A stretch of DNA of 23,861 nt from the NCBI GenBank assembly GCA_963825055.1, contig CAWGSK010000006.1:1-23861 (forward strand), given 5' to 3'. The notes under the pieces are model-generated. The model was not told the origin of the DNA. It made no database searches and was given only the letters and a program-made list of their open reading frames with translations. Every line of letters starts with the position of its first letter. The first letter of the stretch is position 1. This DNA comes from an uncultured Gemmatimonadales bacterium. Its GTDB lineage: Bacteria; Gemmatimonadota; Gemmatimonadetes; Gemmatimonadales; GWC2-71-9. Both the position numbers and the translations under genes were made by a program. This document shows positions 151 to 22,775 of the stretch, in pieces.

Positions 151-199
151 CGGCGAACGGGGAGCGGTGATTGGTGATTAGTGATTAGTGCCTGGGGAG
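151..199 (+). repeat. Degenerate G-rich heptamer array
   Basis: CGGCGAA CGGGGAG CGGTGAT TGGTGAT TAGTGAT TAGTGCC TGGGGAG in exact 7-nt phase. Confidence 0.75.
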
Positions 200-211
200 A
201 AAGTATCTTCG

Positions 212-260
212 CGATCCCCGATCCCCGATCCCCGATCCCCGATCCCCGATCCCCGAACCC
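212..260 (+). repeat. Heptamer tandem repeat (CGATCCC)x6 + CGAACCC
   Basis: Read directly: six perfect units and one variant. Confidence 0.97.
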
Positions 261-292
261 GCGGCCCCGGACTCACCTGAGCCCGGGGCCGC
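261..292. terminator. GC-rich stem-loop between convergent genes, probable terminator or 3'-end stabiliser
   Basis: GCGGCCCCGG (261-270) pairs perfectly with CCGGGGCCGC (283-292), with inner CTCA/TGAG. No U-tract. Confidence 0.6.
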
Positions 293-293
293 G

Positions 294-321
294 CCCTTCG
301 AACTTCGTCCTTCGTCCTTCG
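294..321 (+). repeat. Heptamer array (NNCTTCG)x4
   Basis: CCCTTCG AACTTCG TCCTTCG TCCTTCG, next to the BON gene stop. Confidence 0.85.
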
Positions 322-324
322 ACC

Positions 325-996
325 CTACAACACCGCAAACACCGGCGGGTCCACCTCGATGTGGTTGACCACGCTGGTGACCCCGGAGGCCGCCCACGCC
401 GCGCTGGCGGCATCGTTCTTCTCGGCCAGAGACGGCACCTTGCCGCGCAGGGTGACGGTATGGCCCTCGATCTCCACGGTGACATGCGAGGCATCGATCT
501 CGGCCTGGCGCTTGAGGGCCGATTCGATATGGCTGCGGACGTCCGTCCGGGTGGGAGCGGGAGCCATGGTGAGCGAGTTCACGATGCCCTTGACCCCGGT
601 CAGGTACCGGACCGCACGCTCAGCGGCGAGCCGCTGGTAGTTCCAGTCCACATCCCCGGTCAGGGTCACCCATCCGTTTGCGACTTTCACTTTGATCCGT
701 GGCTCGGGCACCTCGATGTCCATCTTGAGCGCGTTCAGCGCGGCGTGGGCGATCTCGGAGTCGGAGCGCTCGGTTATCCGGGACAGTTTCACCATGAGTT
801 CGTTGGCGATGGCCCGGACACCCTTGACCCGGGCGACGGCCCGCTCGGCCGCATAGCGCTGGGCGTAGGTGTCCACCGTGCCGGCCAGGGTCACGACCCC
901 GTCCTTCACGACAATGGCGATGTCCTCGTCCCGGATGCTGGGTTCCCAGGTCAGTTCGGAGACCACGTCCTGCTGGAGTGCGGAATCTGCTTTCAT
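325..996 (-). CDS. BON-domain protein (three BON domains, OsmY-like), 223 aa
   Basis: MKADSALQQDVVSELTWEPS...GVVTLAGTV...GWVTLTGDV...HTVTLRGKV...GVTSVVNHIEV gives three BON repeats. GGGAGG SD upstream of the ATG at 996. The longer ORF-track start (1257) runs through repeats. Confidence 0.92.
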   Translation of the reverse strand: MKADSALQQDVVSELTWEPSIRDEDIAIVVKDGVVTLAGTVDTYAQRYAAERAVARVKGVRAIANELMVKLSRITERSDSEIAHAALNALKMDIEVPEPRIKVKVANGWVTLTGDVDWNYQRLAAERAVRYLTGVKGIVNSLTMAPAPTRTDVRSHIESALKRQAEIDASHVTVEIEGHTVTLRGKVPSLAEKNDAASAAWAASGVTSVVNHIEVDPPVFAVL

Positions 997-1130
997 CTTT
1001 GCCTCCCTGCGTTGCAGCGCGGTCGCCAGGCCGACAGAGAGCCGACACGGAAACCGGCGACAATACAAACTGGCACGGGAGACCTGAATTACCTGTGAAC
1101 CGGGCGTGAAGGTTCCTGCAGTAACGCTCC

Positions 1131-1162
1131 TCGATCCCGCGACCTCCTGGCTTCCCGACCTC
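1131..1162 (+). repeat. Degenerate 8-mer C-rich array (CGACCTCC-like)
   Basis: TCGATCCC GCGACCTC CTGGCTTC CCGACCTC show approximately 8-nt periodicity. Confidence 0.4.
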
Positions 1163-1191
1163 CGCCCCCCCAATCGCCCGCCCTGCGTACA

Positions 1192-1247
1192 ACCTTTGAC
1201 TTTCGACCTTTGACCTTCGACCTTCCCGACACCCGATCTCCGAGGCC
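1192..1247 (+). repeat. C/T-rich heptamer array directly upstream of the DUF481 start
   Basis: ACCTTTG ACTTTCG ACCTTTG ACCTTCG ACCTTCC, then CGACACC CGATCTC CGAGGCC. Confidence 0.9.
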
Positions 1248-1251
1248 CCGC

Positions 1252-1986
1252 ATGCACGTCCGTCGTCCGCTCGCCTGTCTCGTCGTCCTCATCCTGGCCG
1301 CGTTTTCACTCGCGTCCGCCCAGGACGCGGAGGAGGTCAGGCCATTCCAGCTCCAGGCCGACCTGGGCTTCGTCAACGTGGCAGGCAACACCGAGGTCAC
1401 GTCGCTGAACGCCGGAGAAAAGGTCATCTACACGACGGCACCAGTCGTGCTGACCCAGACATTCACCGCCATCTACGGGCGGACCGACGGGCAGACCTCG
1501 GCCAGTACCTGGAAGGCGAGCGGGAGAATGGACTACGGCCTGACCGAGCACCTCGCTGTGTTCGGCCTGGTGGGTTTCGAGAAGAACCGCTTCGCCGGTA
1601 TCGACCGCCGCTTCGAGGAAGTGGTCGGGCTTGCCCTGAAGATCCTGACCGGTCCCCGGGACATTCTCGAAACCGAAGCCGGCCTGTCCTTCAACCAGCA
1701 GCGGACGACCACGGCTGTCGACGACAATTTCACCGCCGCACGTGCCGCGGCGATGTACAAGCATCTTCTGGGAGAGAAGGCCTTTGTCCAGCAGACGGCC
1801 GAGGCGCTGCCGAACCTTGAGGACTCGGAGGACCTTCGTGTGAACACCGAGACCGCGCTCGTGGCACCGCTTTCCTCGAGCATTTCCCTGAAGCTGGCCT
1901 ACGCGATCCGGTTCGATAACCAGCCCGAGCCAGGGTTCAAGAAGACCGACCGGATGTTCACGTCCGGGGTGCAGGTGGTGTTCTAG
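1252..1986 (+). CDS. DUF481/YdiY-like outer-membrane beta-barrel protein
   Basis: Signal peptide (MHVRRPLACLVVLILAAFSLASA-Q), LGFVNVAGNT N-terminal motif, alternating beta strands, FDNQPEPGFKKTD and C-terminal Phe. Confidence 0.85.
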   Translation: MHVRRPLACLVVLILAAFSLASAQDAEEVRPFQLQADLGFVNVAGNTEVTSLNAGEKVIYTTAPVVLTQTFTAIYGRTDGQTSASTWKASGRMDYGLTEHLAVFGLVGFEKNRFAGIDRRFEEVVGLALKILTGPRDILETEAGLSFNQQRTTTAVDDNFTAARAAAMYKHLLGEKAFVQQTAEALPNLEDSEDLRVNTETALVAPLSSSISLKLAYAIRFDNQPEPGFKKTDRMFTSGVQVVF

Positions 1987-2089
1987 TGGCCAGGGAACAG
2001 GGAATGGGGATTAGGCAACAGGGCGTTTAGCTTCAGGTAGCCCGATACCCGATACCCGATACCCGATACCCGATCCCCGATCCCCGAGC
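1984..2089 (+). repeat. G-rich heptamer arm (1984-2025) and C-rich heptamer arm (2041-2089)
   Basis: TAGTGGC CAGGGAA CAGGGAA TGGGGAT TAGGCAA CAGGGCG, a spacer, then (CCCGATA)x4 (CCCGATC)x2 CCCGAGC. Confidence 0.93.
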
Positions 2090-2094
2090 TTCCC

Positions 2095-2580
2095 ATGTCC
2101 ATGCCCAGCCTGAACGCCCTGCACGAGAAGCTCCAGCGGCTCGAGGGCCGCTGGGTTGGCAAGGAGCACCTGCACCCTTCGCCCTGGGATGACAAGGGCG
2201 GACCGGCGGAAAGCGAGGTGGTGAACCGGGTGGCGCTGGATGGGTTCGCCGTGGTGCAGGATTACGTACAGCGCCGGCACGGCAAGGTGACCTACCGGGG
2301 GCACGGGTTGTTTCGCGTGGAACCGGACGGCCACACGATTGCCATGGACTGGTATGACAGCATCGGGTTCCCCCCGGAGACGTTCCACGGCGAATTTGAT
2401 GGCGAGACGCTGGCGCTGAGCAGCAAGGGCGCCCAGGGCACCATGCGCGCGACCTGGACCTTCCACGACAGGAACCGGTACGACCACTGCATGGAAGTGA
2501 GCGGTGACGGCAGCGGCTGGAAGCCGTTCATGGACGGGGAATACCGGCGGGAAGGGAAGGGCGATGGCGAAGGGAAGTAA
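2095..2580 (+). CDS. DUF1579-like beta-rich protein
   Basis: LHEKLQRLEGRWVG...VALDGFAVVQDY...YRGHG...WYDSIG...FMDGEYRR matches the family pattern as I recall it. GC3-rich codons. Confidence 0.7.
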   Translation: MSMPSLNALHEKLQRLEGRWVGKEHLHPSPWDDKGGPAESEVVNRVALDGFAVVQDYVQRRHGKVTYRGHGLFRVEPDGHTIAMDWYDSIGFPPETFHGEFDGETLALSSKGAQGTMRATWTFHDRNRYDHCMEVSGDGSGWKPFMDGEYRREGKGDGEGK

Positions 2581-3085
2581 GGCGGGCGAGGTCGAACGGA
2601 TCGCGGAGGAACTGCAGGCCGGCTACGACGGCTCTCCCTGGCATGGACCCAGCGTGGCCGCCCTGCTCGAGCCGGTGAACTACGCCGTCGCCGCCGCCCG
2701 GCCCGTGGGTCACGCCCACACCATCTGGGAGCTCGTCCTCCACATCACCGCGTGGTCTGCCGAGGTGGCCCGGCGAATCAGCGGGGAGCCGCCGGGACTC
2801 CCCCCCGAGGGCGACTGGCCGGTACCCGCGGCCCCGACGCCGGCTGCGTGGAAGCAGACCCTGGAGCGGCTGGAACAGGTCCGTCGGGACCTGGAGTCAG
2901 CGGTGCGCGCCATGGCCTCCGCGAGGCTGGACGATGTCCTCGGCCCGGTCGAGGAATCTCAGGAGAGTGCCGGGGTAACCCTCAGGACGATGCTGTACGG
3001 CCTCACGCAGCACGATGCCTATCACTCCGGCCAGATCGCGCTGCTGCGCCGCGCGGTGGAGAGCCGGGAGAGTGATTATCCGTAA
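2564..3085 (+). CDS. DinB/YfiT-like four-helix protein
   Basis: PWHGPS, HTIWELVLH and QHDAYHSGQI motifs. ATG at 2564 overlaps the upstream gene by 17 nt. Confidence 0.88.
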   Translation: MAKGSKAGEVERIAEELQAGYDGSPWHGPSVAALLEPVNYAVAAARPVGHAHTIWELVLHITAWSAEVARRISGEPPGLPPEGDWPVPAAPTPAAWKQTLERLEQVRRDLESAVRAMASARLDDVLGPVEESQESAGVTLRTMLYGLTQHDAYHSGQIALLRRAVESRESDYP

Positions 3086-3092
3086 GGCAGCC

Positions 3093-3217
3093 AGTGGCGA
3101 GTGGCAAGTAGCGAGTGGCGAGTAGCCCCGCATGGCCAACTCAACTTGCCACTTGCCACTTGCCACTCGCCAACTCCCCGACTGCCTGCTGCCTATTCCC
3201 TACTCCCTATTCCCCCT
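3093..3217. repeat. Inverted heptamer arms (AGTRGCN x5 / ACTYGCC x4) plus a third array TSCCTAY
   Basis: 3093-3127 AGTGGCG AGTGGCA AGTAGCG AGTGGCG AGTAGCC; 3144-3171 (ACTTGCC)x3 ACTCGCC; 3183-3217 TGCCTGC TGCCTAT TCCCTAC TCCCTAT TCCCCCT. Confidence 0.92.
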
Positions 3218-3242
3218 TACTCCTTGCCTATATTACAGCCCT

Positions 3243-3316
<74 letters not shown>

Positions 3317-3377
3317 CTGGACTTCCCACTGTGCACCCCCCCCTCCCATCCGACGTCTCCATCGTAAAACGCGCCCC

Positions 3378-3405
3378 TTGCGCCCCGCATCCTCGCGGGC
3401 ATACT
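3378..3405 (+). promoter_or_regulatory. Putative sigma70-type promoter for the lipoprotein pair
   Basis: TTGCGC-N16-CATACT upstream of a GGAG SD and the ATG at 3440. Confidence 0.35.
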
Positions 3406-3439
3406 GACCCCTGTTACCCCTTGGCCGGAGCAGGTGCAG

Positions 3440-4741
3440 ATGCGTGCATATCCCGGGATAATCGCCGTGGCCCTTCTGACTGCCGCGTGCAACGATCCTG
3501 TTTCGACTTCCCGGTATGATGGTGCGGTCACCATCACCCCCTCCACCCAGTGGAGCGGGGGAACCGTCATGGTGACCACCGACCAGCTGCTGAACTATTC
3601 CACCACGCCCGTCATCACGGCTGGCACCGATACCCTGTCGGCGACGGTGGTGGACGACACCACACTGTCCGTCACCCTGCCGTCAGTCCCTACCAGTACC
3701 GTGTCTCTCGTCGCGCACGGATCCGCCGGCGACATGGCCCTCGGGATCGTGGACGTCCTCGGATTCAACCGATGGATCACAACGGGGGAGCGGGTCGGGG
3801 CTCCTTTTGTACCGTACCCAGTGGAACAACCCAGCGGGGTGCTCGGCTTCGACGAGGCCGGCCAGGTCGTATTTCTGCATGCGGCAACCGGCCATGTCAC
3901 TCACACCCAAATTGCTCCAACGCCGGGGTTCGAGCGCGCGATTGGAATGTCATATCAGCCTGGGGTGTTCACCGCCGTCGCCGGCGATTCCGTGATATTC
4001 TGGTCGTGGCCCTACCCGCCCGGCAGCGCTCCGGTGATGGCCGGGTTCCTGAAGTCTCCCACCTTCTACAGGGACGCGATCAGCGTCGTCGCACCCTGGA
4101 CGCTCTTTGCCACGCGCCACGATGTTACCGTCACCTTCCGTTCAGCGGATAGCGGCATCACCTGGTACAGCGTTTACAACGCCAGTGGAAATCGTGCCGA
4201 GGACTATCCGAGGGTTCCCGTGGTGAATCCCGACCGTACCCTGTTCACCATCTGGGCGGATGGAACAACCCCGTACGGAACGCCGGTCTTCGACCTGCCC
4301 GCCGCGACTCTGCGCTACCGGATTCCAACGTTCTTCTTCACGACCCAGCGCCCGTTCTTTGCCGACAGCGGAGATCTGTACATTGCCGGCGACAGCGCGT
4401 CGATCGGCATCGTGGCCCGTTACCGTGCGGAAGACGGGACCGAGCTCAACCGGCTCGAGCTGGCCGGCAGCCGGGTTGACGTCATGGCGCCGATCCCTGG
4501 TGGGGGTGGGGCATACATCTTCGTCATCGACCGTGATCCCGCCAGCGTCGATTATGTGGGGCCCCGTCTGATGGTGCTCGACCGAAGCCTCAATGTTACC
4601 GCCGAACTGATGGTGCCGCAGGACCAGTGGGAAGTCGTCAGGAGTGCCGTTTTCCACGCATTGATCGCTGATCAGTCGCGACGCCAGGTCTATCTCATCC
4701 AGCCTGGGTACGAGACCCTCGTCTTCGATGTCCTCAATTGA
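3440..4741 (+). CDS. Lipoprotein paralog 1: N-terminal IPT/TIG-like Ig domain plus probable beta-propeller with an Asp-box
   Basis: Lipobox LTAA-C; ITPSTQWSGGTVMV...DTTLSVTLP is IPT-like; SADSGITW is an Asp-box; ends LVFDVLN. Confidence 0.8.
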   Translation: MRAYPGIIAVALLTAACNDPVSTSRYDGAVTITPSTQWSGGTVMVTTDQLLNYSTTPVITAGTDTLSATVVDDTTLSVTLPSVPTSTVSLVAHGSAGDMALGIVDVLGFNRWITTGERVGAPFVPYPVEQPSGVLGFDEAGQVVFLHAATGHVTHTQIAPTPGFERAIGMSYQPGVFTAVAGDSVIFWSWPYPPGSAPVMAGFLKSPTFYRDAISVVAPWTLFATRHDVTVTFRSADSGITWYSVYNASGNRAEDYPRVPVVNPDRTLFTIWADGTTPYGTPVFDLPAATLRYRIPTFFFTTQRPFFADSGDLYIAGDSASIGIVARYRAEDGTELNRLELAGSRVDVMAPIPGGGGAYIFVIDRDPASVDYVGPRLMVLDRSLNVTAELMVPQDQWEVVRSAVFHALIADQSRRQVYLIQPGYETLVFDVLN

Positions 4742-4755
4742 GCGACGGAGGATGT

Positions 4756-6030
4756 ATGTATAGGCCAATTCTGGTGGCGGGAACGATGCTGGCCATCTGC
4801 GCGTGCAGCGATCCTGTATCGACTTCCCGGTATGATGGTCCCGTCACCATCACCCCCTCCATCCAGTGGAGCGGGGGAGTGGCCACGGTGACCACCGACC
4901 AGCTGCTCAACTATCCCACCACCCCCGTCATCACCGCTGGGACCGATACCCTGGCGTCGGCCGTGGTCGATGACACGACCCTGAGTGTGACCCTTCCGCC
5001 GCTGCCAAGCGGGACCGTCAACCTGATCGCTCACGGCTCTGCCGGTGACCTGGATCTGGGAAGCGTCAGCCTCGTCGGCTACAGCGGCAGAATCCAGGCC
5101 TCCGGCTTCCTGGGAGAACAGCAGCGCTGGTCCCGGTCCAGCCCGGCTGGCGCGCTCGGCGAGACCGCGAATGGAAAGGTCGGGTACCTGCACGCAGCGA
5201 ATGGCGTCCTCACCATCCTTCCGGTCGATGACGGCGCCTCGCCCTACGGCCCGGGAGCCAGCTACCGCGATAATGTGTTCACCGTACTCTCCCCGAACGG
5301 GGTCGATTTCTGGCAATACTCAGCTGGGGGAACACCGGTCAAACTCGATTCGGCCCCGGTGAGCAATCCGGCCGGCCGACCTGTCCATGAGCTTGCCCCA
5401 TGGACATTTCTGGTACCAAGCCACCACTCGATGTATATCGAGAAGTCCCCCGACAACGGAGCGACGTTCACGACGACGTACAATCCTTCCGCGGCACAGA
5501 CGGAGGAATCGACCTGGGGCGTGGTGTACGCCCCGTCAGGGTCGCTGGCCACCATCCGGGTGAGTGCCACGCCCATGGGCGTCCCGGTCTTCGACCTGCC
5601 CGCGGGAACGCTGCGCTATCGCGTGCCGTTGTACGAGCCTGCGGGAGGCGCTGTGTTTACCACCGACGGCGAACTCTACATGGCGGGTGATACGCTGTAT
5701 GGCGGGCCGGGAGATATCGTCCTGCGGCTGGACGCGAACACCGGGGCAGAGCTCGGGCGGACCAGCATCCCGGCTCCCTGGTCGGTCCTTGGGTTCGCCA
5801 CGGACGTCACCGAGAGCCGCCTCTATGCCTTTCTCTCTGGCTTTCCTTCCGGGCTTGCCGTGATGGTGCTGGACCGGAGTCTCCAGCCCGTGGCGACGCT
5901 CGCGGTTCCGGAAGGGACCGGCTTTTCGACCCTCTGTGATGGCATTACGGTCATTCCGGACGCTGCCCACGGGAAGGTGTATGCCATGAGCTGTCTCGGG
6001 GAGGTCCTGACGTTCGACCTGTTGAACTAG
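4756..6030 (+). CDS. Lipoprotein paralog 2, same architecture
   Basis: GGAGG SD, MYRPILVAGTMLAICA-C lipobox, SPDNGATF Asp-box, ends VLTFDLLN, collinear with paralog 1. Confidence 0.8.
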   Translation: MYRPILVAGTMLAICACSDPVSTSRYDGPVTITPSIQWSGGVATVTTDQLLNYPTTPVITAGTDTLASAVVDDTTLSVTLPPLPSGTVNLIAHGSAGDLDLGSVSLVGYSGRIQASGFLGEQQRWSRSSPAGALGETANGKVGYLHAANGVLTILPVDDGASPYGPGASYRDNVFTVLSPNGVDFWQYSAGGTPVKLDSAPVSNPAGRPVHELAPWTFLVPSHHSMYIEKSPDNGATFTTTYNPSAAQTEESTWGVVYAPSGSLATIRVSATPMGVPVFDLPAGTLRYRVPLYEPAGGAVFTTDGELYMAGDTLYGGPGDIVLRLDANTGAELGRTSIPAPWSVLGFATDVTESRLYAFLSGFPSGLAVMVLDRSLQPVATLAVPEGTGFSTLCDGITVIPDAAHGKVYAMSCLGEVLTFDLLN

Positions 6031-6147
6031 GCGGCGGGGGCTGGTGCGCAGCGTCATCGGGATTACGTTTCATGCTGAAACCGAGAGGTTGCCCCGTCCG
6101 TAGGGACCTCGAGACCAGCACAATCCCCCACGAGCCGGAGGCCGGAG

Positions 6148-6540
6148 ATGCGCCCAGTCCCATCCGACAAGTCCCGCACCGTCGCCCTGATCCTGGCGGC
6201 CGTCCTGGGCGTCTTCGGCGTCCACCGGTTCTACGTCGGAAAGATCGGCACCGGCCTCCTGATGCTGCTTACCATGGGCGGACTCGGGATCTGGTATCTG
6301 TATGACGTCATTACGATTGCCGGCGGCTCCTTCCGCGACGTGGACGGCCGCCGCGTCCTGCGGTGGGATCCGGAGGACGTCATGTACGACCAGCGGCAGC
6401 TGCCGCCGGAGGTCGAGGATGAGCTGGACATGCTCCGGGGGGAGTTGAGCGACCTCCACGAGCGGCTCGACTTCACCGAGCGGCTGCTGGCCAGCCGGGA
6501 CCGGGACACCCTGTCGCACACAGGGGATACCCCCCGCTAG
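6148..6540 (+). CDS. TM2-domain membrane protein with C-terminal coiled coil
   Basis: KSRTVALILAAVLGVFGVHRFYVGKIGTG is the TM2 signature. Tail LRGELSDLHERLDFTERLL. Confidence 0.9.
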   Translation: MRPVPSDKSRTVALILAAVLGVFGVHRFYVGKIGTGLLMLLTMGGLGIWYLYDVITIAGGSFRDVDGRRVLRWDPEDVMYDQRQLPPEVEDELDMLRGELSDLHERLDFTERLLASRDRDTLSHTGDTPR

Positions 6541-6659
6541 GCCCGTGGTCCATCGGGGGCGGCTACCGCTGTCCCCGCTTCCGCATTACCATCCCAATCT
6601 GCCCTTCAAACTCGAACACCGGCCCTTTCCCGGGCCGCGCTTCCTCATCTGGAGGATTC

Positions 6660-9419
6660 ATGTCATTGTTCCGTCGTCTGCTCGCGACCGCCCTGGTGCT
6701 GTCCACCGGCGTCGCGCTGCCCGCGGCTGCCCAGTCCACCGGCAGCATCGACATCCCCTACCAGAAGTTCGTCCTGAAAAACGGCCTGACGGTGCTGGTC
6801 CACGAGGACCACAAGGCGCCGATCGTGGCGGTCAATATCTGGTACCACGTCGGCTCGAAGAACGAAAAGCCGGGCCGCACCGGCTTCGCGCATCTCTTCG
6901 AGCACCTGATGTTCAACGGGTCGGAGAACTACAACCACGATTTCTTCGACCCGTTCGAGAAGGCCGGCGCCACCAACCAGAACGGCACCACCAACGAGGA
7001 CCGGACCAACTACTTCGAGAACGTCCCCACCCCCGCGCTGGACATGGCGCTCTGGATGGAGTCAGACCGGATGGGGCACCTCCTCGGCGCCATTGACACC
7101 GCGAAGCTGAACGAGCAGCGCGGGGTGGTGCAGAACGAGAAGCGGCAGGGCGAGAACCAGCCCTACGGCAAGACGGACGAGCTGATCACCGCCGCCACCT
7201 GGCCCGCCACTCACCCCTACAGCTGGACCGTGATCGGATCGATGGAAGACCTGGACGCCGCGAGCCTGGAGGACGTGCGGGAGTGGTTCAAGACCTATTA
7301 CGGACCCGCGAACGCGGTGCTCGCCATCGCCGGCGACATCGACGCCGCCACGGCCCGGCAGAAGGCCGAGCAGTATTTCGGTGATATCCCCTCAGGGCCG
7401 CCGATCTCGAAGCAGGACGTCTGGATCGCGAAGCGGACCGGCGACCACCGGCAGGTGATGCAGGACCGTGTGCCCCAGGCCCGGGTCTACAAGGTGTGGA
7501 ACATTCCGCAGTACGGCGATGCCCAGGCCCGCTACCTGGACCTGGTGAGCGACGTGCTCGGCGCGGGCAAGAACTCCAGGCTCTACAAGCGGCTGGTCTA
7601 TGACGACCAGATCGCCACGGACGTGGCCGCCTACGTGGACCTCCGCGAGATCGGCGGCCAGTTCTACATCCGGGCCACCGCCCGCCCGGGCCAGGACCTG
7701 GGCGCGGTGGAGAAGGCGGTGGACGAAGAGCTGGCCCGCTTTCTGAAGGAAGGGCCGACCGACGAGGAGATGTCCCGGGTCAAGACCCAGTACCGGGCCC
7801 GGTTCGTCCGGGGCGTGGAACAGATCGGCGGGTTCGGCGGCAAGTCGGACGTGCTGGCTCGCGACCAGGTCTACATGAACGATCCTGCCTTCTACAAGAC
7901 CACGCTGGACCGGGTGGCCAATGCTACCGCGGACGACCTGGCCGGCGCGGCCCGCGACTGGCTCTCCGACGGCGTCTACGTGCTCGAGGTGCATCCGTTC
8001 CCGAACTACGCCACGACCGCGAGCACGGTCGACCGCTCGAAATTTCCGGACATCGGGTCCGCGCCGAAGGTGGCGTTCCCGGCCCTCGAGCGGGCCACGC
8101 TGTCCAACGGGCTCAAGATTGTCTTCGCGAAGCGGGACGCGGTACCGGTGGTGAACCTGACCCTGCTGGTTGATGCGGGCTATGCTGCCGACCAGTTCGG
8201 CAAGCCGGGGACGGCGAGCCTCGCGATGAACATGCTGGATGAGGGCACGAAGTCGCGGAACGCGCTCCAGATCAGCGAGCAACTGGCCCAGCTGGGCGCC
8301 AACCTCGGCACGGGGTCATCGCTGGACATGTCCCAGGTGTCCCTCTCGGCGCTCAAGAGCAACCTGGACCAGTCCCTGGCACTCTACGCCGACGTGATCC
8401 TGAACCCCAGCTTCCCGGCCGACGAGTTCGACAGGCTCCAGAAGCAGCAGCTCGCCCGGATCCAGCGGGAGAAGGTGACACCGGTCCAGATGGCGCTCCG
8501 GGTCTTCCCCCGCCTGCTCTACGGGGAAGGGCATGCCTATGGCAATTCCTACACCGGCACCGGGACGGAGGCCAGCGTCAGCAGCATGGCCACGGGCGAT
8601 CTCCAGAAGTTCCACACCACGTGGTTCAAGCCGAACAATGCCACGCTGGTGGTCGTGGGCAACACGACCATGAACGAGATCCGGCCGAAGCTGGAGAAGC
8701 TGTTCAGCGGCTGGAAGCGGGGGGACGTGCCGAAGAAGAACCTGGCGACGGTGAAGATGCCCGAGAAGCCGGTGGTGTACCTGATCGACCGCCCCGGCTC
8801 GGACCAGTCGATCATCTTTGCCGGCAACGTCGCACCGCCCAAGGCGAATCCTGACGAAATCGGCATCGATGTGATGAACGATATCCTGGGCGGGAAGTTC
8901 GGTTCGCGGGTGAACATGAACCTGCGGGAAGACAAGCACTGGTCGTACGGAGCGTTCACGCTCCTGCTGGATGCGCGCGGACAGCGCCCCTTCATCGCGT
9001 ATGCCCCGGTGCAGACCGACAAGACCGCCGAGTCCATGGCCGAGGTCCAGAAGGAACTGGAAGGCATCCTGGGCCAGCGCCCCGTCACGGCGGACGAGCT
9101 GACCACGGCCAAGGCGAACCTGACCCTGACCCTGCCTGGGCGCTGGGAGACGATGGGCGCCGTCGGGGGCTCGATCAACGAAATCGTGACCTACGGGCTC
9201 GACGATCGCTACTGGGACACGTATGGGGCAAAGGTTGACGCCCTCCGGGCCGCTGACGTGGTGCCGGCCGCGAAGAAGGTCGTCGCCCCCTCGCACCTGG
9301 TCTGGGTGATCGTGGGGGACCGGTCGAAGATCGAGGATAAGGTCCGCGCCCTGAACCTGGGCGAAGTGCGGTTCCTGGATGCGGACGGCAAGCCGGCCGG
9401 AGATACGGCGGGGAGGTAA
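6660..9419 (+). CDS. Secreted M16 family zinc peptidase (PqqL/pitrilysin-like, two-lobed)
   Basis: Signal peptide, GFAHLFEHLMF inverted zinc motif HxxEH, second inactive M16 half (LSNGLK...LREDKHWSYG), GGAGG SD. Confidence 0.95.
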   Translation: MSLFRRLLATALVLSTGVALPAAAQSTGSIDIPYQKFVLKNGLTVLVHEDHKAPIVAVNIWYHVGSKNEKPGRTGFAHLFEHLMFNGSENYNHDFFDPFEKAGATNQNGTTNEDRTNYFENVPTPALDMALWMESDRMGHLLGAIDTAKLNEQRGVVQNEKRQGENQPYGKTDELITAATWPATHPYSWTVIGSMEDLDAASLEDVREWFKTYYGPANAVLAIAGDIDAATARQKAEQYFGDIPSGPPISKQDVWIAKRTGDHRQVMQDRVPQARVYKVWNIPQYGDAQARYLDLVSDVLGAGKNSRLYKRLVYDDQIATDVAAYVDLREIGGQFYIRATARPGQDLGAVEKAVDEELARFLKEGPTDEEMSRVKTQYRARFVRGVEQIGGFGGKSDVLARDQVYMNDPAFYKTTLDRVANATADDLAGAARDWLSDGVYVLEVHPFPNYATTASTVDRSKFPDIGSAPKVAFPALERATLSNGLKIVFAKRDAVPVVNLTLLVDAGYAADQFGKPGTASLAMNMLDEGTKSRNALQISEQLAQLGANLGTGSSLDMSQVSLSALKSNLDQSLALYADVILNPSFPADEFDRLQKQQLARIQREKVTPVQMALRVFPRLLYGEGHAYGNSYTGTGTEASVSSMATGDLQKFHTTWFKPNNATLVVVGNTTMNEIRPKLEKLFSGWKRGDVPKKNLATVKMPEKPVVYLIDRPGSDQSIIFAGNVAPPKANPDEIGIDVMNDILGGKFGSRVNMNLREDKHWSYGAFTLLLDARGQRPFIAYAPVQTDKTAESMAEVQKELEGILGQRPVTADELTTAKANLTLTLPGRWETMGAVGGSINEIVTYGLDDRYWDTYGAKVDALRAADVVPAAKKVVAPSHLVWVIVGDRSKIEDKVRALNLGEVRFLDADGKPAGDTAGR

Positions 9420-9443
9420 TGGGAGATCTCGACAAGGCTCACT

Positions 9444-9541
9444 GTGAGTAGTGAGTAGTGTTTCAGGGTGGGTTCGCAGCCGCTGGCCCGACCTCACCCT
9501 GAAGCGCTACTCACTAGTCACTAGTCACTAGTCACTAGTCA

Positions 9542-9544
<3 letters not shown>
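9444..9544. terminator. Long stem-loop built partly of heptamer repeats between the convergent M16 and icd genes
   Basis: 9449-9470 pairs with 9495-9516 (22 bp including 2 G-U). The CTAGTCA x4 array runs into the icd stop. Confidence 0.75.
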
Positions 9545-10798
<1,254 letters not shown>

Positions 10799-10810
10799 TG
10801 TTCGGCCTTG

Positions 10811-10820
10811 TGGTATGATA
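10811..10820. promoter_or_regulatory. Overlapping divergent -10-like elements between icd and aceK
   Basis: + strand TG-G-TATGAT (10811-10819); - strand TATCAT (10820-10815). Confidence 0.45.
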
Positions 10821-12613: not shown

Positions 12614-12638
12614 GCGTCATCACGGCAATACTCATCGG

Positions 12639-12707
12639 TCCGCCCGTGTCCGCCCTGTCCGCCCTGTCCGCCCGGTCCGCCCTGTCCGCCCGGTCCGCCC
12701 TGTCCGT
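12639..12707 (+). repeat. 9-bp tandem repeat TCCGCCC(T/G)G, six units plus variants
   Basis: Units at 12649, 12658, 12667, 12676, 12685 and 12694; a 10-nt variant at 12639; ends TCCGT. Confidence 0.95.
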
Positions 12708-12870
12708 GTGAAAGCCCGCGCCGGTCGGGCGTCCCTTATTACTGAGGCACGAACCGATCGGGGCTGGCCGCCCCCCCCGGTTCGCCCCCCCCAATCCTTC
12801 TCACAGCGGTCTTGCGGGCGTTGCGTCGGGCGACATACTCGAATCCATGTACCTTCGCCATGAGGTAGTG

Positions 12871-15800
12871 GTGTCGCGCTTTCGACTCAGTGCTGTCCTT
12901 GGGCTTCTGCTCCTGCCATCCGTCGTGGCGGGCCAGAAACCTGCGCCGGTCAGGGCCGGGTTCGGCCTGTTCGATGCCTCCCGCATCAGAGTCAACCACG
13001 TGGACTGCGGTTTGGCCAACATCGGGGCTGTCTGCCAGGATGATGCATACTCGACACTGAACGGAGCGCTTTGGCCCACATCACTCGGCCTGACCTACAT
13101 CTTCAGCTCCGGCCCGTCGGTAGCGGGCATTATCGGGACGGACGGCGGCCCGTGGCAGGGTGACACGACCGGCGCCATGTTCTACGACCCCAGGGGGACG
13201 CAGCAACATGGCGTGGGGCTTACGACGATCTTCAACGCGAGCCGGTCCGCCGACCTGGCCGCCTGGCCCGAGGCGGGGCTGGTGCAGGGCAGCCTGCCAT
13301 ATGACTTCCACGCCGCCGGCCGGAAATCAGTAAGTGAGGGGGACGTCTGGTGGCTCACGTGGGAAGGGGATCCGTGGTACGCGTCCGGGCGGCCGCATCC
13401 GCTCGGCGTGCTGGCGGAGTTCCGAGTGCTGGAGTGGAACTATCCCCTGGGCAACGACGATATCCTCTATGCGGCCGTGACCTATCACAACATTACCTCG
13501 CTCGACCCCGTGGATTACGCCGGCGTCCCGGCGGGGCTCCGGGATTCGCTGATGGTGGTCGCGGCGCGGTTCCACCGGCAGAACGACTCCGCCTATGGGA
13601 TCACCCTCCCCCGGAGTGGTTACACGATCGAACGGATGTACGCCGCATGGAATACCGATCCCGATGTCGGATTCGGGGGTGGGAATTTCAGCAGCGTCAA
13701 CATTCCAATGGGGCTCGCATACGCCTGGAGTGACGGCTTTCAGCAACTCGTCTATCCGCGATACGATCCCGCCGTGTTCGGCGGACCTTTCTTTCCCGGT
13801 ACCGGACTGGTCGGAGTCGGCGTCCTCGGGCCCCCGCTCACCGTTTTTACGGAGACCTCGTACGGCGGAGGGCTGGAAGACCCGTTGAGTATCGGAGAGC
13901 TGTACCGGCGCGCCACGGGGAACTTCGACGCGGCCGGGTTCCCATGCACCTTCGATCCACTCGTTTCGCACATCTGCAGTATCCGCCTGTCCACCCCGTT
14001 TGACATACGACTGTTCCAGGCGGCGGGTCCCCTGACGCTTGCGCCGGGCCAGTCGGCAACCACGATGGTGGCGTTCGTGTTCGCGGCGCCACTCCCTGCC
14101 GCCGGCTGTCCGGGCCTCGGCTGTACCGTGGCCCCGGGCGATTCCGCGATCATCGCCGGCATGTCCGATCCTGCGGTCGTGGCCGCGGGGGTGAACCCGA
14201 TCGACACCATCGCGGGTTTCCTTGGGGCGCAGGACGCGAGTGGGGACGGGGTACTCCAGGGTGACGAGTTCATCACCGAGCCTCGCTCGCTCTACTGGAA
14301 GGCCCAGGTGGCCCAGGCGCTGTTCGACCATCAGTTCCTGCTGCCCCAGGCCCCGGCGGCGCCGGACTTCTTCCTGATTCCGGAGCGGGATGCGGTGACG
14401 GTGGTGTGGCGGCCCAGCATCTCGGAACAGACAGGCGATCCGTACTACGACGTGGCCAGTGGAGCCCGGGTCGATCAACGCACAGGGAGCCTCGGTGCCG
14501 AACGTGCTGTACGACCCGAACTACCGGCAGTTCGACGTGGAGGGATACCGCATCTACCGGGGGCGGGTGGACGACCCGGCGGCGCTGGAGCTGGTGGCGC
14601 AGTTCGACTACTCGGGCACGACCATGTCCGACTACGGCGGCTACGTGAACCCGAACCAGTTCTGCGCGCCGGAACTTGGCGTGGTGTCCGCGTGCGCGGC
14701 CGCCTTCGACTCCATGGTGCCGGGCATCGCGCGCACGGCCCATGTGGACGTGGACATCGGCTGGCAGTTCGTGCAGACCAGGCTTGGTGACCGGACGACC
14801 CTGCCGAACGGCCTGGTGACGGTACTCCACGCCGACACCGTAGGTGGGGCGGCCGGGTATCTCCAGAACACGGGAGTGCCGTTTTCCTGGCGCGACACGA
14901 CGGTCCGGCAGGGCTTCCGGTACTTCTACACCGTGACGGCGTTCGACGTGAACTCGCTTCAGTCCGGCCCGCCCAGCCAGGAGAGCCCGCGCGTGCTCAA
15001 GGCCGTCCGGCCGGAAAGCCGGGCAGGCAATCTCGTGGCGGAGGGTCGCCTGACGGCCACCCATCTGATCGGCCGTGGCGTGGTGTTGGATACGGCGACC
15101 ATCGCCGGTGCCCAGCCGGATACGATCGAGCCGGCCACGGGACGCTTCAAGCACCCCTTCCCACCCGCCTCCAGCTGGGGGCTCTCCTTTTACGCCTATG
15201 TACCGGCCCTCCTCGATTCGGGGAGTGTCCGGCTCACCCTGGACAGCGCCACGCTGGGTTCCCCCTATGACGGTATCCCCCATGTCTACTGGTGGACCAG
15301 CCGGAGCGGGGGAGCGACGACCCATTTCTCCCTGCCGGTTCTGCAACACCAGGAAACCGGGGTCGTGTACGCCTCCGTGCAGGCCAACGCCGTGCCCGTA
15401 GCACCGGCGCTGGCCGGCCAGTACGGCGGGGACGCCGGGTACCGGCTGCCGGTCAACCTGTCCCAGGGTTTACCCGGTGCGGATTATGCCGGACTGTACG
15501 GTCGAGGCTGTGTCAACGGACGCCCCGGGTTCCTCAACGGCTACCAGTACGGTGAGTGCGCCTACAACGGGTCCCGCTGGTTTGACGGCCCCTCGCCCGC
15601 GAAGAACGAGACGAAGGTGCATCCGATCGAAGGCAACCAGGCCAACTTCACTGGCACGCCCGTCACCAACTACAACAACGCGGGCGAACTGTCCGGCGTG
15701 GTCACGATCCATAACACCCAGGCGTATCAATCGGTCGGTGGGGCGGAGTACCGCCCGGTCGAGGGGATCAAGGCGGGCGCCCACCGAGCGGCGGACTTCA

Positions 15801-16687
15801 ATGTCTACTGGGGCAGTGGCGGAAGGGTTGACTCAGTCATCGACATTACGCACAACGTCCCCGTGCCGTTCAGCCCGGACATGGGGTTGAGCTGGGGCAT
15901 CCTGAACGGACCGGCGGCATCACTGCCCGGGTCGTACGACCAGCGCCTGGACCTGACCGGGACGGACATGGGGTGTGTCGAGCCCCTCCGCTCGTACGGG
16001 ACGACCATCTCCTGCGGCAGCGGCGGGCCGCGATACCAGCTCGCCAATGTCGCCGTCCCGTCTTCCATCGCCTTCTTCAGCCCGGTCCTGATCGATGCCC
16101 GCACGGCCCCAGTGGCGCCGAACGCGGGCATCGTGTTCTACCTCGCGGGCGATTTCTTCACGATGGAACTGGCGGGAGGGCAGGTGCCGGCGAAAGGGAC
16201 GGTCTGGTCGCTGCGGCAGTATATCGGCGCCATCACGGGTGGCTCGGGCGACGGGGGCAATTACGGGTCGTATGCGTACTCCAACCCCGAAAGCACCCTG
16301 CCGCTGACGGCGGCCGGGGTGGAAATCGAACTGACCTGGAGCGGGGTAAACGCCTTGCGCGCCCCGATGAAGTCCGACCTGGCATCGGTCCACCCGGTAC
16401 CGGACCCCTACATGTTCGGCAACGCCTGGACGAATGACCAGGCGCTTCCGGTCATCCGGTTCGTGAACCTCCCGGCCGATGCCATCATCCGGATCTACAC
16501 CTCGAGCGGGGTGCTGGTCCGCCTGCTGGAGCACCACAGCACCACCTTTGGTGGCTCGGAGGACTGGGACGTGCGGACCCGCTCGGGCCGCAAGGTGGCC
16601 AGCGGGGTGTACTTCTTCCACGTGGAATCCGGCGACGCCCGCCGCACCGGCCGGATGACCATCGTGAACCCGGACGGGGGGCGCTGA
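12871..16687 (+). pseudogene. Large secreted protein (~1271 aa when joined) with a T9SS type-A-like/FlgD-Ig C-terminal domain, frameshifted at ~14461 (real lesion or sequencing error)
   Basis: Signal peptide after GTG 12871 (GAGG SD). Removing one G in AGT-G-GAG joins ...GDPYYDVAS to EPGSINAQ...LYDPNYRQFDVEGYRIYRG. C-terminus VHPVPDPY...IRFVNLP...IRIYTSSGVLVR...WDVRTRSGRKVASGVYFFHVE. Confidence 0.8.
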
Positions 16688-17491: not shown

Positions 17492-17502
17492 CCACGACTG
17501 CC

Positions 17503-20198: not shown

Positions 20199-20804
20199 TC
20201 AGAGAGATTCGAGCAGCGTCTCCACCGCCAGGACCTCCTCGAGCAGCGCGCCGCGCTCGAGGTGCGCGTCGAACCGGAGCAGCGCCGCCTCGCTGGAGCG
20301 CCGGAGCGCGCTGACCATGTCGGCATCGGCCGCGCGTTCCCGGCCGAAGCGGTGCAGTGCTTCGCGCATGGCCGCCTGTTCCACCAGCATCCGCGCGGCG
20401 AGGACGAGATTCTTGTGGCATGCCTCTGCGACGGGGGTAATGTGCTCCTCACCCGGCAGGCCGAGCCGGGGCAGCCGGAGCGCGGCCAGCGCCTCGTCCT
20501 GCAGCTCCACGATGGTCGAGAACGGCCGGCCGCGCCGGCGCAGGAACTCGAGCCGCTGGTGTTCCAGCTCGGCCCGGATCGCCGCCAGGGAAGCCTCGGT
20601 GTCCTCCGATTCCTCGTGCAGGACGTCCCACAACCCCGGAATCGGCCACTCATGATGCTCCCGGAGCATCTCCTGCACCGCGAAACCGTATTCGCCCGTG
20701 CGGCGGGCGAACCGTGCGGCTGCCCGGGCGAGCGAACCGCGGGTACGCCAGAGCTCGCGGAAGGTGTCGTACTGCATCAGGGTATGCGTGATCTCGGGTG
20801 TCAT
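20199..20804 (-). CDS. Hypothetical alpha-helical protein, 201 aa
   Basis: Fills the gap exactly (its stop abuts the serA stop: TGA-TCA), GC3-rich codons, upstream sigma54-type promoter. Confidence 0.75.
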   Translation of the reverse strand: MTPEITHTLMQYDTFRELWRTRGSLARAAARFARRTGEYGFAVQEMLREHHEWPIPGLWDVLHEESEDTEASLAAIRAELEHQRLEFLRRRGRPFSTIVELQDEALAALRLPRLGLPGEEHITPVAEACHKNLVLAARMLVEQAAMREALHRFGRERAADADMVSALRRSSEAALLRFDAHLERGALLEEVLAVETLLESL

Positions 20805-20852
20805 GGGGCACTCGCGACTGGGCCGCTGGTGAAGGGGACATCACCATCATCG

Positions 20853-20868
20853 GCATGACCCGTGCCAG
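20853..20868 (-). promoter_or_regulatory. Sigma54 (RpoN) -24/-12 promoter
   Basis: Minus strand CTGGCACGGGTCATGC = TGGCACG-N4-ATGC with exact GG-N10-GC spacing, about 50 nt upstream of the ATG at 20804. Confidence 0.7.
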
Positions 20869-20917
20869 ACGGCAGGAAGTTGCACCGACACTTAGACTTT
20901 ACTTCATATTGTCATCG

Positions 20918-20930
20918 TAAGCATTTGATA
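20918..20930 (-). promoter_or_regulatory. IHF binding site in an AT-rich patch
   Basis: Minus strand TATCAAATGCTTA matches WATCAANNNNTTR exactly. Confidence 0.6.
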
Positions 20931-21068
20931 TATATATCGTTACGGATTCTGCACACTGTGACTGACTGAGAGCCCCCTCGCGAGTGGGTGGTCCGCCAGG
21001 GCCGTCGTGCTGGCGGCGATGCCGGAATTCGCTATTATCACGCCCCCTTCACCTCCCAGGAGCGCCCG

Positions 21069-22688
21069 CTGGTCCCGACCATCGTTCGTACCCTGCGCGG
21101 CTACCGCCGGGAGCAGTTCGCCGCTGACCTGGTCTCCGGGCTCATCGTCGGCATTGTCGCGATTCCTCTCGCCATCGCCTTCGCCATTGCCAGCGGCGTC
21201 ACGCCCGACCGCGGGCTGGCGACCGCTATCGTCGCGGGATTCCTCATCTCCGCGCTGGGCGGCTCGCGTGTCCTGATTGGCGGACCCACCGGCGCCTTCG
21301 TCGTCATCGTCTACGGCATCGTCCAGCAGCACGGTCTCGAGGGGCTGCTTCTCGCCACGATGATGGCCGGACTCCTCCTCGTGATGTTCGGCCTCGCCCG
21401 TCTTGGCACTGTCATCAAGTACATCCCGTATCCCGTCACCCTCGGCTTCACCAGCGGCATTGGCCTCGTGATCTTCGCCGGTGAGGTGAAGGATTTCCTC
21501 GGGCTCGAGATGGGCAGCCTTCCACCGGGGTTCATCGGGCGCTGGGGGGCATATGCTGCGGCCATCGGGACGGTGAACTGGTGGGCGTTGGGGGTGGGAC
21601 TGTTCGCGCTGGCCATTCTTGTATGGTGGCCCCGCGTAAGCCGGGGCGTGCCGTCACCCTTCGTTGCCCTGGTGGCAAGCACGCTGGTGGTTTACCTGGC
21701 CGGATTGCCGGTGGAGACCATCGGGGACCGGTTCGGCCACCTGGGCGGCGGACTGCCGCTGCCCCGGCTCCCCCATGTGGACCTCGCCCTGGTCCCGGCG
21801 CTGATCGGTCCCGCGCTGACGATCGCGGTGCTGGCGGCCGTCGAGTCGCTGCTGGCCGCGGTGGTGGCCGACGGCATGATCGGCGACCGGCACGACTCCA
21901 ACATGGAATTGATCGGGCAGGGGATCGCCAACCTGGTGACGCCGCTCTTTGGCGGCATCCCGGCCACGGGGGCCATTGCCCGGACCGCGACGAACGTCAG
22001 GGCCGGCGGTCGCACCCCGGTGGCCGGGATCGTGCACTCCGTGATGCTTCTCTTCGTCGCGCTCTTCATCGGGGGGCTGGTGGAACGGATCCCACTTGCC
22101 ACGCTCGCGGCCATCCTGATGGTGGTGGCCTGGCATATGGGGGAGTGGGGTGTCTTTCGCGCCGAGCTCAAGGGACCGGGGAGTGATGTCGCCGTCCTGC
22201 TGACGACTTTTGCCCTGACGGTGCTCGTGGATCTGACCGTGGCCATTGAAGTCGGGATGGTGCTGGCCGCGTTCCTCTTCATGCGGCGGATGTCGGAAGT
22301 GGCGAGCGTATCACTCGTCTCGACCGACGAAGCCGGGCAGGGGACGATACCTGACCTGCCGAAGGCGGTGGCGGTCTACGAGATCGATGGACCGTTCTTC
22401 TTCGGCGCGGCGGAAACATTCCGGGAGACAATGCATGAGCTGGCGGAACGGCCCCGGATCCTGGTCCTCCGCCTCCGCCACGTTCCGGTGATCGACAGCA
22501 CGGGGCTTCATGCCCTGCACGACCTGGTGCTCCGGTGCCGGGCGGACGGTACGCGTGTCATCCTGAGCGGGCTTACTCCCCGCCTCCGCGGAATCATCGA
22601 GCGGTCGGCGCTCGGGACCCAGCTCGAGCCCGCGCAGTTGTTCGGGGATTTTGAGGAGGCGCTGGAGGAGGCGCGGCGCCGGGTCTAG
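21069..22688 (+). CDS. sulP: SulP/SLC26 anion transporter with STAS domain
   Basis: DLVSGLIVGIVAIPLAIAFAIASG, GGSRVLIGGPTGAF, ELIGQGIAN, PATGAIART, GPFFFGAA, VIDSTG. Start is uncertain (CTG 21069 behind AGGAG, or GTG 20988). Confidence 0.93.
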   Translation: MVPTIVRTLRGYRREQFAADLVSGLIVGIVAIPLAIAFAIASGVTPDRGLATAIVAGFLISALGGSRVLIGGPTGAFVVIVYGIVQQHGLEGLLLATMMAGLLLVMFGLARLGTVIKYIPYPVTLGFTSGIGLVIFAGEVKDFLGLEMGSLPPGFIGRWGAYAAAIGTVNWWALGVGLFALAILVWWPRVSRGVPSPFVALVASTLVVYLAGLPVETIGDRFGHLGGGLPLPRLPHVDLALVPALIGPALTIAVLAAVESLLAAVVADGMIGDRHDSNMELIGQGIANLVTPLFGGIPATGAIARTATNVRAGGRTPVAGIVHSVMLLFVALFIGGLVERIPLATLAAILMVVAWHMGEWGVFRAELKGPGSDVAVLLTTFALTVLVDLTVAIEVGMVLAAFLFMRRMSEVASVSLVSTDEAGQGTIPDLPKAVAVYEIDGPFFFGAAETFRETMHELAERPRILVLRLRHVPVIDSTGLHALHDLVLRCRADGTRVILSGLTPRLRGIIERSALGTQLEPAQLFGDFEEALEEARRRV

Positions 22689-22693
22689 GAACT

Positions 22694-22775
22694 GGTCGAA
22701 GGTCGGAGGTCAAAGGTCGCTAGTGAAGGGTCGCAGGTCGCCGATTCGCGACCTGCGACCTTTGACCCTCGCCCG
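22694..22775. repeat. Inverted heptamer arms (GGTCRNN) with a central 13-bp hairpin between convergent genes
   Basis: GGTCGAA GGTCGGA GGTCAAA GGTCGCT AGTGAAG GGTCGCA GGTCGC; 22729-22741 pairs perfectly with 22748-22760. Confidence 0.88.

Follow-up and report, generated by a model that had tools for sequence, protein, structure and literature searches.

What process sets tandem repeats of seven to nine bases, in many different units and in an orderly orientation, at the boundaries of bacterial genes? The question is raised by a stretch of 23,861 nucleotides (the window; contig CAWGSK010000006.1 of assembly GCA_963825055.1) from an uncultured Gemmatimonadales bacterium, seven of whose gene junctions had been described in an earlier note as carrying such arrays; by Tandem Repeats Finder (TRF) and direct inspection, all seven do. 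Intergenic heptamer direct repeats are familiar from cyanobacteria as short tandemly repeated repetitive (STRR) sequences. To our knowledge, no explanation exists either for dispersed heptamer arrays or for the ‘S23/IVS’ proteins, which are four-helix bundles (IVS, intervening sequence), both of them widespread. The present genome makes a link between array and protein testable, as it holds several cassette lineages side by side, each a four-helix-bundle gene between repeat arms of its own family, together with hundreds of matching arms that enclose no gene. The arrays, which stand either singly or as inverted pairs of a G-rich and a C-rich arm around a short loop, are probably non-autonomous copies of the arms of these IVS-type cassettes, placed next to gene ends in the manner of REPINs (repetitive extragenic palindromic doublets forming hairpins), a reading whose probability we put at about 0.58.

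The assembly to which the window belongs, as contig C6, comprises 3.53 Mb in 35 contigs (87% complete, about 68% G+C; G000 below) and is likely a two-strain bin, given that some 15 small contigs, the window's own among them, repeat parts of larger contigs in a strain-like manner. These duplicates served as a close comparison, and key counts were redone after their removal. Genes were called with our own hexamer model (3142 genes) and tRNAs with ARAGORN; individual start positions may be off. The comparison set consisted of this genome and 40 relatives of its order (41 genomes).

Four-helix-bundle genes enclosed by inverted repeat arms

The genome holds eight PF05635 genes, all above the Pfam cut-off (the TIGR02436 cut-off was passed by 4/4 proteins tested), and two GxxExxY genes. 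Every one of the eight PF05635 genes is preceded by a G-rich array and followed by a C-rich one complementary to it, and a link of the arrays to four-helix-bundle cassettes, at which the earlier note had only guessed, thus holds. Seven of the eight are antisense to both neighbours, and all eight, like the arrays of the window, sit between protein or tRNA genes, outside 23S rRNA. The family is present in 34 of the 41 genomes. From about 140 matches in this genome and its relatives 97 loci were fetched, three of which were dropped for short flanks; upstream and downstream flanks were complementary above the 95th percentile of the null in 89 of the remaining 94, compared with 10/94 in direct orientation. 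The downstream neighbour was convergent in 14 of the 21 loci of relatives where it could be assigned. The same held further afield, in about 14 phyla: flank complementarity surpassed the null in 65 of 77 named loci, 56 of which had strong 7- or 8-mer arrays (direct orientation, 17/77). The predicted model of the cassette protein (pLDDT 95) has four helices and is closest in structure to 2GSC (Xcc0516), with a template-modelling (TM) score of 0.92, and 83 of the 97 cassette cores carry a net positive charge.

Not all cassettes conform to one type of arm. Four of them (L001, L005, L013 and L023) have arms of reversed G/C skew, with TAGCTGA- or TAACTGA-like units, and base skew is therefore not the invariant. 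One four-helix-bundle clade (L016, L020, L129, L131, L135, L144 and L151, in relatives G031 and G035) is without strong tandem arrays, at least L020 having long non-periodic inverted arms in their place. Both GxxExxY (PF13366) genes, at C13:290993-291337 and C30:97640-97984, are antisense to their neighbours and lie within degenerate 9-mer inverted arms of their own, an arm type for which a loose pattern gives 37 matches in the genome. Small nuclease-type genes at C8:64416 (DUF559), C3:91267 (GIY-YIG) and C3:21452 (RAYT-like; RAYT, REP-associated tyrosine transposase) each have their own palindromic repeat family, and palindromes of the GIY type are often nested within the loops of heptamer pairs.

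Arrays across the genome

The arrays are real, genome-wide and beyond chance. At a score of at least 50, TRF returned 233, 100 and 71 rows of period 7, 8 and 9 genome-wide, against three of period 6 and one of period 10. Intergenic arrays numbered 327, 142 and 84 for the three periods, with at most 0.3 in base-shuffled intergenic DNA and at most 10 for each of periods 4–6 and 10–12; with duplicates removed, 553 intergenic arrays were spread across 337 junctions. Among junctions longer than 30 bp, again without duplicates, the share that bears arrays is 100/206 for convergent, 188/1013 for tandem and 42/320 for divergent junctions. The commonest units, ACTACTC (38), ACTAGTC (30), ACCGTTC (25), ACTTGCC (22) and ACCTTCG (22), lack a CCC/GGG tract, although some unit families include one.

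A G-rich array lies nearer the left gene and a C-rich array nearer the right gene for 500 of 613 arrays, across all four junction types (448/553 after removal of duplicates). Of 140 junctions with both polarities, duplicates again removed, 138 read G-then-C, one GCGC and one CG, and single-polarity junctions keep the outer end at the gene less tightly (120/165). The earlier note had read this pattern as G-rich strands following stops and C-rich strands preceding starts. The pattern itself stands, and is already in print for Xanthomonas and Nostoc, in passages of PMC4692102; a separate code for gene direction does not, the geometry being that of inverted pairs. Polarity holds at tandem, convergent and divergent junctions alike because an inverted pair with its G-arm first reads identically on both strands, and the apparent stop/start rule follows from the G-then-C order built into cassette arms. 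The gene inside a cassette loop in fact violates the rule, with G-rich repeats ahead of its start and C-rich repeats past its stop.

Arms lie at a median of 3–4 nt from stops and 31–39 nt from starts, and the gap between paired arms has a median of 40 nt. TAG accounts for 147 of the 269 stops that adjoin arms and for 215 of 842 control stops, a preference that persists when units containing a stop codon are excluded (45/76 vs 215/842). Whether TAG belongs to the element itself was examined on the side that faces a start codon, where it shows a weak excess in the outer flank (39/187 vs 131/1169 controls). Thirteen candidate cargo genes other than cassette genes were found between matched arms, none of them convincing.

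Gene-less arms and their cognate cassettes

Among the 588 gene-less arrays, the unit is the same as in a resident cassette arm for 190, as compared with 7±9 (maximum 36) for eight random foreign cassettes, and at most one base away for 379 (73±38, maximum 212). Of the units left unmatched, the largest two agree by eye with the arms of cassette C2:172520, which the automated comparison had missed. Arms are also shared, at separate sites, within two pairs of paralogues of this genome. Over a protein tree in which 60 of 97 loci could be labelled for arm period by a fixed score, the period (7 vs 8/9) changes eight times, compared with 18.2 in within-host shuffles (minimum 10; 0/1000 at eight or fewer) and 19.7 in free shuffles. 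Arm likeness is 0.019 within and 0.016 between hosts, but 0.100 where the proteins are more than 55% identical. Kin share traits, and the agreement of period with tree therefore shows linkage of arm and gene, not binding.

Beyond the repeat unit, non-periodic sequence is shared too. Arms of the TAGTGA family end in five non-periodic bases, RGTG-YYTBR, in 56 of 85 cases (3.3 expected), and the upstream arm of the cognate cassette ends likewise. The terminus stands on both arms in 14 of 24 gene-less pairs and on the upstream arm only in the single filled site; the pair at 9420-9541 of the window exemplifies it. An 18-nt linker joins varied G-arms to a TAGTGA arm at seven occurrences (six sites and one duplicate) and in none of the 40 relatives, and a variant of this linker family is carried by window 166-260. 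A shared inner motif after 8/9-mer arms was found in only 10 of 118. The contention that slippage alone is not sufficient to produce the arrays is supported by these shared termini and linkers. No cassette-gene remnant was detected in gene-less junctions, a profile search of all intergenic DNA returning only the eight filled sites.

Turnover at duplicated and orthologous junctions

Array junctions with a strain-like second copy were identical in only 5 of 29 cases, compared with 109 of 196 array-free junctions. One duplicated junction is bare in one copy and holds a 158-bp arm pair between two TAG stops in the other, and at two more both arms have been replaced by those of another family at the same place. 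Copy number and units also vary between near-identical copies, and above 3 nt the commonest indels are of 7 nt (12 in array junctions). Variation between filled and empty states, which the earlier note had suggested looking for among related genomes, was found at the junction 5' of ychF, compared over 30 loci and L024. An intact cassette occurs there in G000 and G025, with different units, and a frameshifted one in G027; about four or five loci, judged by eye, have arms only, and most have neither cassette nor arms. In G037 the ychF junction seemed to hold a remnant of a cassette, which a profile search did not bear out. The sister cassettes L005 and L012 adjoin the 5' end of the same orthologous gene, one inverted relative to the other.

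Register and kinship of the repeat units

The units had been described as unrelated sequences sharing a register, Y-N-N-Y-Y-R-N. In this genome the register is firm, being found on the C-rich strand of 361 of 371 heptamer arrays (shuffled units 232±38, maximum 335) and of 48 of 55 unit types (34.9±3.1, maximum 44 in 2000 shuffles; other strand 7/55), and an unbiased alignment of units gives 3.77 bits where the null reaches 2.93 at most. Outside this genome it is no more than a tendency: across phyla 31 of 47 downstream units fit (null 22.5; 4/2000 as high), and among relatives 17 of 30 (null 15.3), which is not significant. Nor are the units unrelated, for they differ from their kin by one or two substitutions or by a single inserted base. 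Single substitutions join 50 of 55 heptamer types into one network (null mean 23, maximum 43), and with one-base insertions allowed 93 of 104 types and 594 of 605 arrays are joined across periods 7, 8 and 9. Units that are kin to one another need no common reader to share a register. Paired arms of a junction differ by at most one base in 61 of 153 pairs (null 19.8, maximum 33) and are identical in only 10; in 33 of 140 pairs the arms differ in period.

A proposed copying mechanism and its alternatives

The case for arrays as copied cassette arms rests on the arm geometry, the arm families shared with resident cassettes, the recurrence of non-periodic termini and of a linker, the gain and loss of arms, their replacement in pairs, and the co-inheritance of period and protein. 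In the mechanism that we infer, the protein of each four-helix-bundle lineage would be a pentamer like Avd that binds nucleic acid, without an evident catalytic site; it would recognise its own repeat as single-stranded hairpin DNA, and might help a host recombination or template-switch step to copy an arm, a gene-less pair or a whole cassette. Copies would land just past a gene end, with a preference for convergent junctions and TAG stops. Once they are in place, slippage would alter copy number, point changes and one-base insertions would create new units, and arm-to-arm copying would partly re-match the two arms. Such a mechanism predicts that each four-helix-bundle protein binds only its own repeat; if it is true, about a fifth of this genome's intergenic regions longer than 30 bp and half of its convergent junctions have been shaped by an undescribed copying route.

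Several observations weigh against this account. In the cassette protein no catalytic motif was identified, its invariant columns being mostly structural, nor was any target-site duplication or transposition intermediate. In the tree analysis 37 of 97 loci are unlabelled for arm period and many forks are unresolved, and the Mantel correlation of protein with arm is weak (rho 0.086, p 0.013). Among 101 gene-less pairs compared most loops are unique, and whole-element copying is therefore shown only for the linker family. Array load, scored with a partial IUPAC pattern, is not significantly related to cassette number in the 40 relatives (rho 0.25, p 0.12), and some cassette-rich genomes have few or no matching arrays (G031 has eight cassettes and no matches). 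The match of arms to cassettes could partly run in reverse, with cassette arms taking on host repeats by conversion. Recombination with a relative, and not recent change, may account for the differing alleles on duplicate contigs, and the 158-bp difference may be a gain in one copy or a loss in the other.

Among the alternatives, it seems unlikely to us that the repeats are made by the host, through local replication slippage mirrored by quasi-palindrome template switching, and kept as hairpins that stabilise or terminate mRNA at its 3' end, the bundle genes merely lying inside arms that were converted to host units. The variation of units and copy number between near-identical copies, with its 7-nt indels, favours this origin, as do the enrichment of convergent junctions, the mostly unique loops, an array load not tied to cassette count and the slippage hypothesis for heptamers cited in Rehm et al. 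2015 (PMC4692102). However, slippage cannot generate shared non-periodic termini and linkers, the arm period tracks the protein tree and not the host, the G-then-C order is present in 139 of 140 two-polarity junctions, the six intrinsic terminator sites predicted in window 1-13000 (5.1 expected) all lie off the arrays, and the sense strand folds more stably than the antisense in only 28 of 69 cases. An alternative that we consider less probable still confines movement to whole cassettes, later deletion of the gene leaving arm pairs or single arms as scars. The filled, frameshifted, arms-only and bare states at ychF, the resident cassettes matched by gene-less units and the opposite orientations of L005 and L012 all speak for such scars, which the earlier note had proposed. 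Simple gene loss is disfavoured, since hundreds of gene-less junctions yielded no cassette remnant, the upstream-arm terminus often stands on both arms of gene-less pairs, unlike in the filled site, the arms are typically only 40 nt apart, and the gene-less linker family is dispersed as a unit.

Very improbable, finally, is the other origin that had been suggested, a mark for RNA ends or RNA processing with a single dedicated reader, be it RNase III in an IVS-like excision or a register-specific RNA-binding protein. Matched pairs do form strong predicted hairpins (z −4 to −9), arms do lie within a few nucleotides of stops, the register does exceed chance across phyla, and the Coxiella IVS combines heptamers, an S23p open reading frame (ORF) and RNase III cleavage in the stem (PMC4990558). 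The strand-bias tests were negative nevertheless, with no excess of G-U over A-C mismatches on the transcribed strand (9 vs 12) and no folding advantage of the sense strand; the register is not significant among relatives, and many pairs are poorly complementary, those of unequal period included. RNase III was not found in the 87% complete genome with PF14622, PF00636 or TIGR02191, and was matched in only one of the 40 relatives, whereas the same searches matched 8 to 9 of 14 controls. The sole match among the 41 genomes (PF00636) sits on a short contig, and 33 of 34 near-complete genomes are without one; absence from draft genomes is not proof, and the enzyme may have been lost across the whole order. 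A reverse transcriptase (RVT_1) was likewise not found in G000. The lack of an RNase III match in 40 of 41 genomes, together with that of a reverse transcriptase in G000, argues against IVS-like RNA processing, and the apparent lack of RNase III in an arm-rich order would set the element apart from rRNA IVSs and their excision at the RNA level.

The copying of cassette arms might be carried further, to a distinct class of mobile DNA in which non-catalytic four-helix-bundle pentamers, each co-evolving with its own 7–9-base repeat, copy arm hairpins to gene ends without transposase, reverse transcriptase or RNase III, and which would be the generator of the bacterial heptamer excess and of the ORF-bearing 23S IVSs. 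We regard this wider proposal as tentative and rather doubtful. If true, it would explain the GGGAATC repeats of Xanthomonas, the TAACTGA repeats of Beggiatoa and the cyanobacterial STRR.

Repeat arms in the window

The flanking genes of the window junctions were confirmed by Pfam, and an Rfam scan gave a tRNA as its sole match. Features below are on the plus strand except where stated, and each arm was returned by TRF as a period-7 array over the same interval unless another is given. The first junction (126-324) holds arrays, although as a nested composite element rather than one array. A G-rich heptamer arm, GTGATTA (TCACTAA on the C-rich strand; 166-190, TRF 167-190), lies 41 nt past the stop at 125 and is joined through a non-periodic linker of 21 nt between two different arm families (191-211, minus strand) to a C-rich arm of seven TCCCCGA units (212-260), the three forming one composite gene-less element. 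The linker is a variant that departs at two points from the one found seven times in the genome, and is itself not one of those seven. A further C-rich arm, CCTTCGT/CCTTCGA (295-321), ends the junction 4 nt from the stop of a minus-strand BON-domain gene.

A single C-rich arm, CCTTCGA/CCTTTGA (1192-1225), stands 27 nt ahead of the DUF481 start. Past the TAG stop of that gene a degenerate G-rich arm (1991-2023) follows directly, and a C-rich arm of TACCCGA/TCCCCGA (2041-2087) precedes the DUF1579 start; the folding predicted for this pair is weak (z −2.1). Past the DinB-family stop comes a matched inverted pair (3093-3172), its G-arm AGTGGCG/AGTGGCA at 3093-3123 and its C-arm TTGCCAC at 3144-3172, with a predicted hairpin of z −8.6 and a unit shared with the cassette at C13:276166. 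A second C-rich arm, TCCCTAY (3183-3214, TRF 3192-3214), lies ahead of tRNA-Arg(TCT) (3243-3317), a boundary gene outside the element, called by both ARAGORN and Rfam.

Past the M16 peptidase stop, a G-rich GTGAGTA arm with its family-specific inner terminus at 9461-9468 (9444-9468, TRF 9444-9460) is paired with a second inner terminus (9497-9504) and a C-rich arm of five TCACTAG units (9497-9544, TRF 9507-9544), which overlaps the icd TAG stop; the hairpin predicted for 9444-9544 has z −7.4 on the plus and −5.2 on the minus strand. An unpaired C-rich 9-mer arm, GTCCGCCCT (12638-12706, period 9 by TRF), lies 34 nt past the aceK stop, and the exception to the polarity rule remarked on at this site is real. 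Between the convergent SulP and SBBP-repeat genes a matched inverted pair (22694-22777; predicted hairpin z −4.3) consists of a G-arm of GGTCGAA/GGTCAAA/GGTCGCA at about 22694-22741 (TRF 22694-22719) and a C-arm at about 22748-22777, seen directly. None of the genome's eight PF05635 matches falls within the window junctions, nor did the profile search show a remnant in their intergenic DNA. In relatives, 52 icd and DUF481 loci gave no four-helix-bundle match at the corresponding junctions, where gene order is poorly conserved.

The whole window (1-23861) has a strain-like duplicate on contig C12 (G000:C12:352457-380987), of patchy identity (75-99.8%). In the interval from the BON gene to DUF481 the copy carries a 2-kb insertion with at least two ORFs (353570-355638, against window 1114-1185); the C-rich arm at 1192-1225, immediately outside which the insertion lies, is retained. 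The C12 copy is 18 nt longer at the arm preceding the tRNA, has different units in the pair at 9444-9544, and at the aceK junction carries a shorter 8-mer version of the arm. Elsewhere in the window, two overlapping long ORFs in different frames (647 and 742 aa; 12847-16687), both without a Pfam match, resemble pieces of a single large surface protein, separated by a frameshift near 14480, with paralogues on C12, C18 and C30. Two tandem paralogous lipoprotein-like ORFs of about 430 aa each (3440-6030), also without a Pfam match, are 80% identical over the 267 bp at their start. The icd and aceK genes form a divergent pair (9542-12613), an arrangement found in 8 of 30 icd loci fetched.

Comparison with known systems

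The closest precedent for the arrays themselves is that of Rehm et al. 2015 (PMC4692102), passages of which describe GGGAATC and GGGGA(C/T)T intergenic heptamer arrays in Xanthomonas and Nostoc, with the G-rich strand at most 50 bp past stops, its antisense ahead of starts, and few arrays at divergent junctions. They count 70–75 convergent inverted pairs of GGGAATC in Xanthomonas; each genome has a single unit there, which is interpreted as forming G-quadruplexes and stated to be unassociated with mobile elements. A supplementary table of the same paper contains, without comment, a GGGAATC array between bccP and XCC0516, on one side only. The GGGAATC unit fits the YNNYYRN register, and both the polarity to stops and starts and the inverted pairs recur here; unlike those repeats, the present genome has about 100 related units of 7, 8 and 9 bases, many unable to form G-tracts, and tied to four-helix-bundle cassettes. 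MacGregor 2015 (PMC4679880) describes TAACTGA intergenic heptamer direct repeats of Beggiatoaceae, oriented toward start codons, as a single unit with a proposed role in translational regulation, in passages that mention no inverted pairing or cassette link. The forward TAACTGA unit also fits the register, and resembles the reversed-skew arms of L001, L005, L013 and L023.

On the side of the protein, passages of PMC4990558 place heptamer repeats ahead of the S23p ORF of the Coxiella 23S IVS and describe a role of that ORF in mobility as proposed but untested. The filled sites here resemble ORF-bearing 23S IVSs in their heptamer repeats, and in that the loop of their inverted-repeat stem holds a gene of that protein family. 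They differ in lying outside rRNA, between protein genes and usually antisense to them, in genomes where RNase III was mostly not found, and in being accompanied by hundreds of gene-less arm copies, the window sites having the stem without the ORF. Avd of diversity-generating retroelements, according to passages of PMC6182149 and PMC10053308, is a pentameric, positively charged barrel that acts with RNA and reverse transcriptase. The cassette protein has the same fold (TM about 0.8 to 4DWL and 8UB7) at 7–10% identity, but scores far below the cut-off of the Avd model (29.9 vs 80 bits), in a genome with no RVT_1 match. No literature was found that ties PF05635 genes to dispersed heptamer arms or describes the gene-plus-arms layout, in a search with thin coverage of subscription journals.

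In its organisation the system comes closest to REPIN-RAYT, in which, as Bertels and Rainey 2011 (PMC3116915) and the RAREFAN preprint (10.1101/2022.05.22.493013) set out, hairpin doublets and singlets are dispersed over extragenic DNA in several groups per genome, each group matching the flanks of a cognate small gene. Common to both are over-represented extragenic inverted doublets that form predicted hairpins, and repeat groups that match the flanks of a cognate gene, here PF05635. The arms, however, are tandem arrays and not short palindromes, and the cognate gene encodes a four-helix bundle and not an HUH tyrosine transposase; because that gene is not a RAYT, the arrays do not belong to REPIN-RAYT, and of the genome's two Y1_Tnp genes the one inspected, which is RAYT-like, has different, non-heptamer flanks. 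What this genome adds to these known systems is the cognate matching of several arm families, the shared non-periodic ends, the paired replacement of arms, the preference for TAG, and the apparent independence from RNase III.

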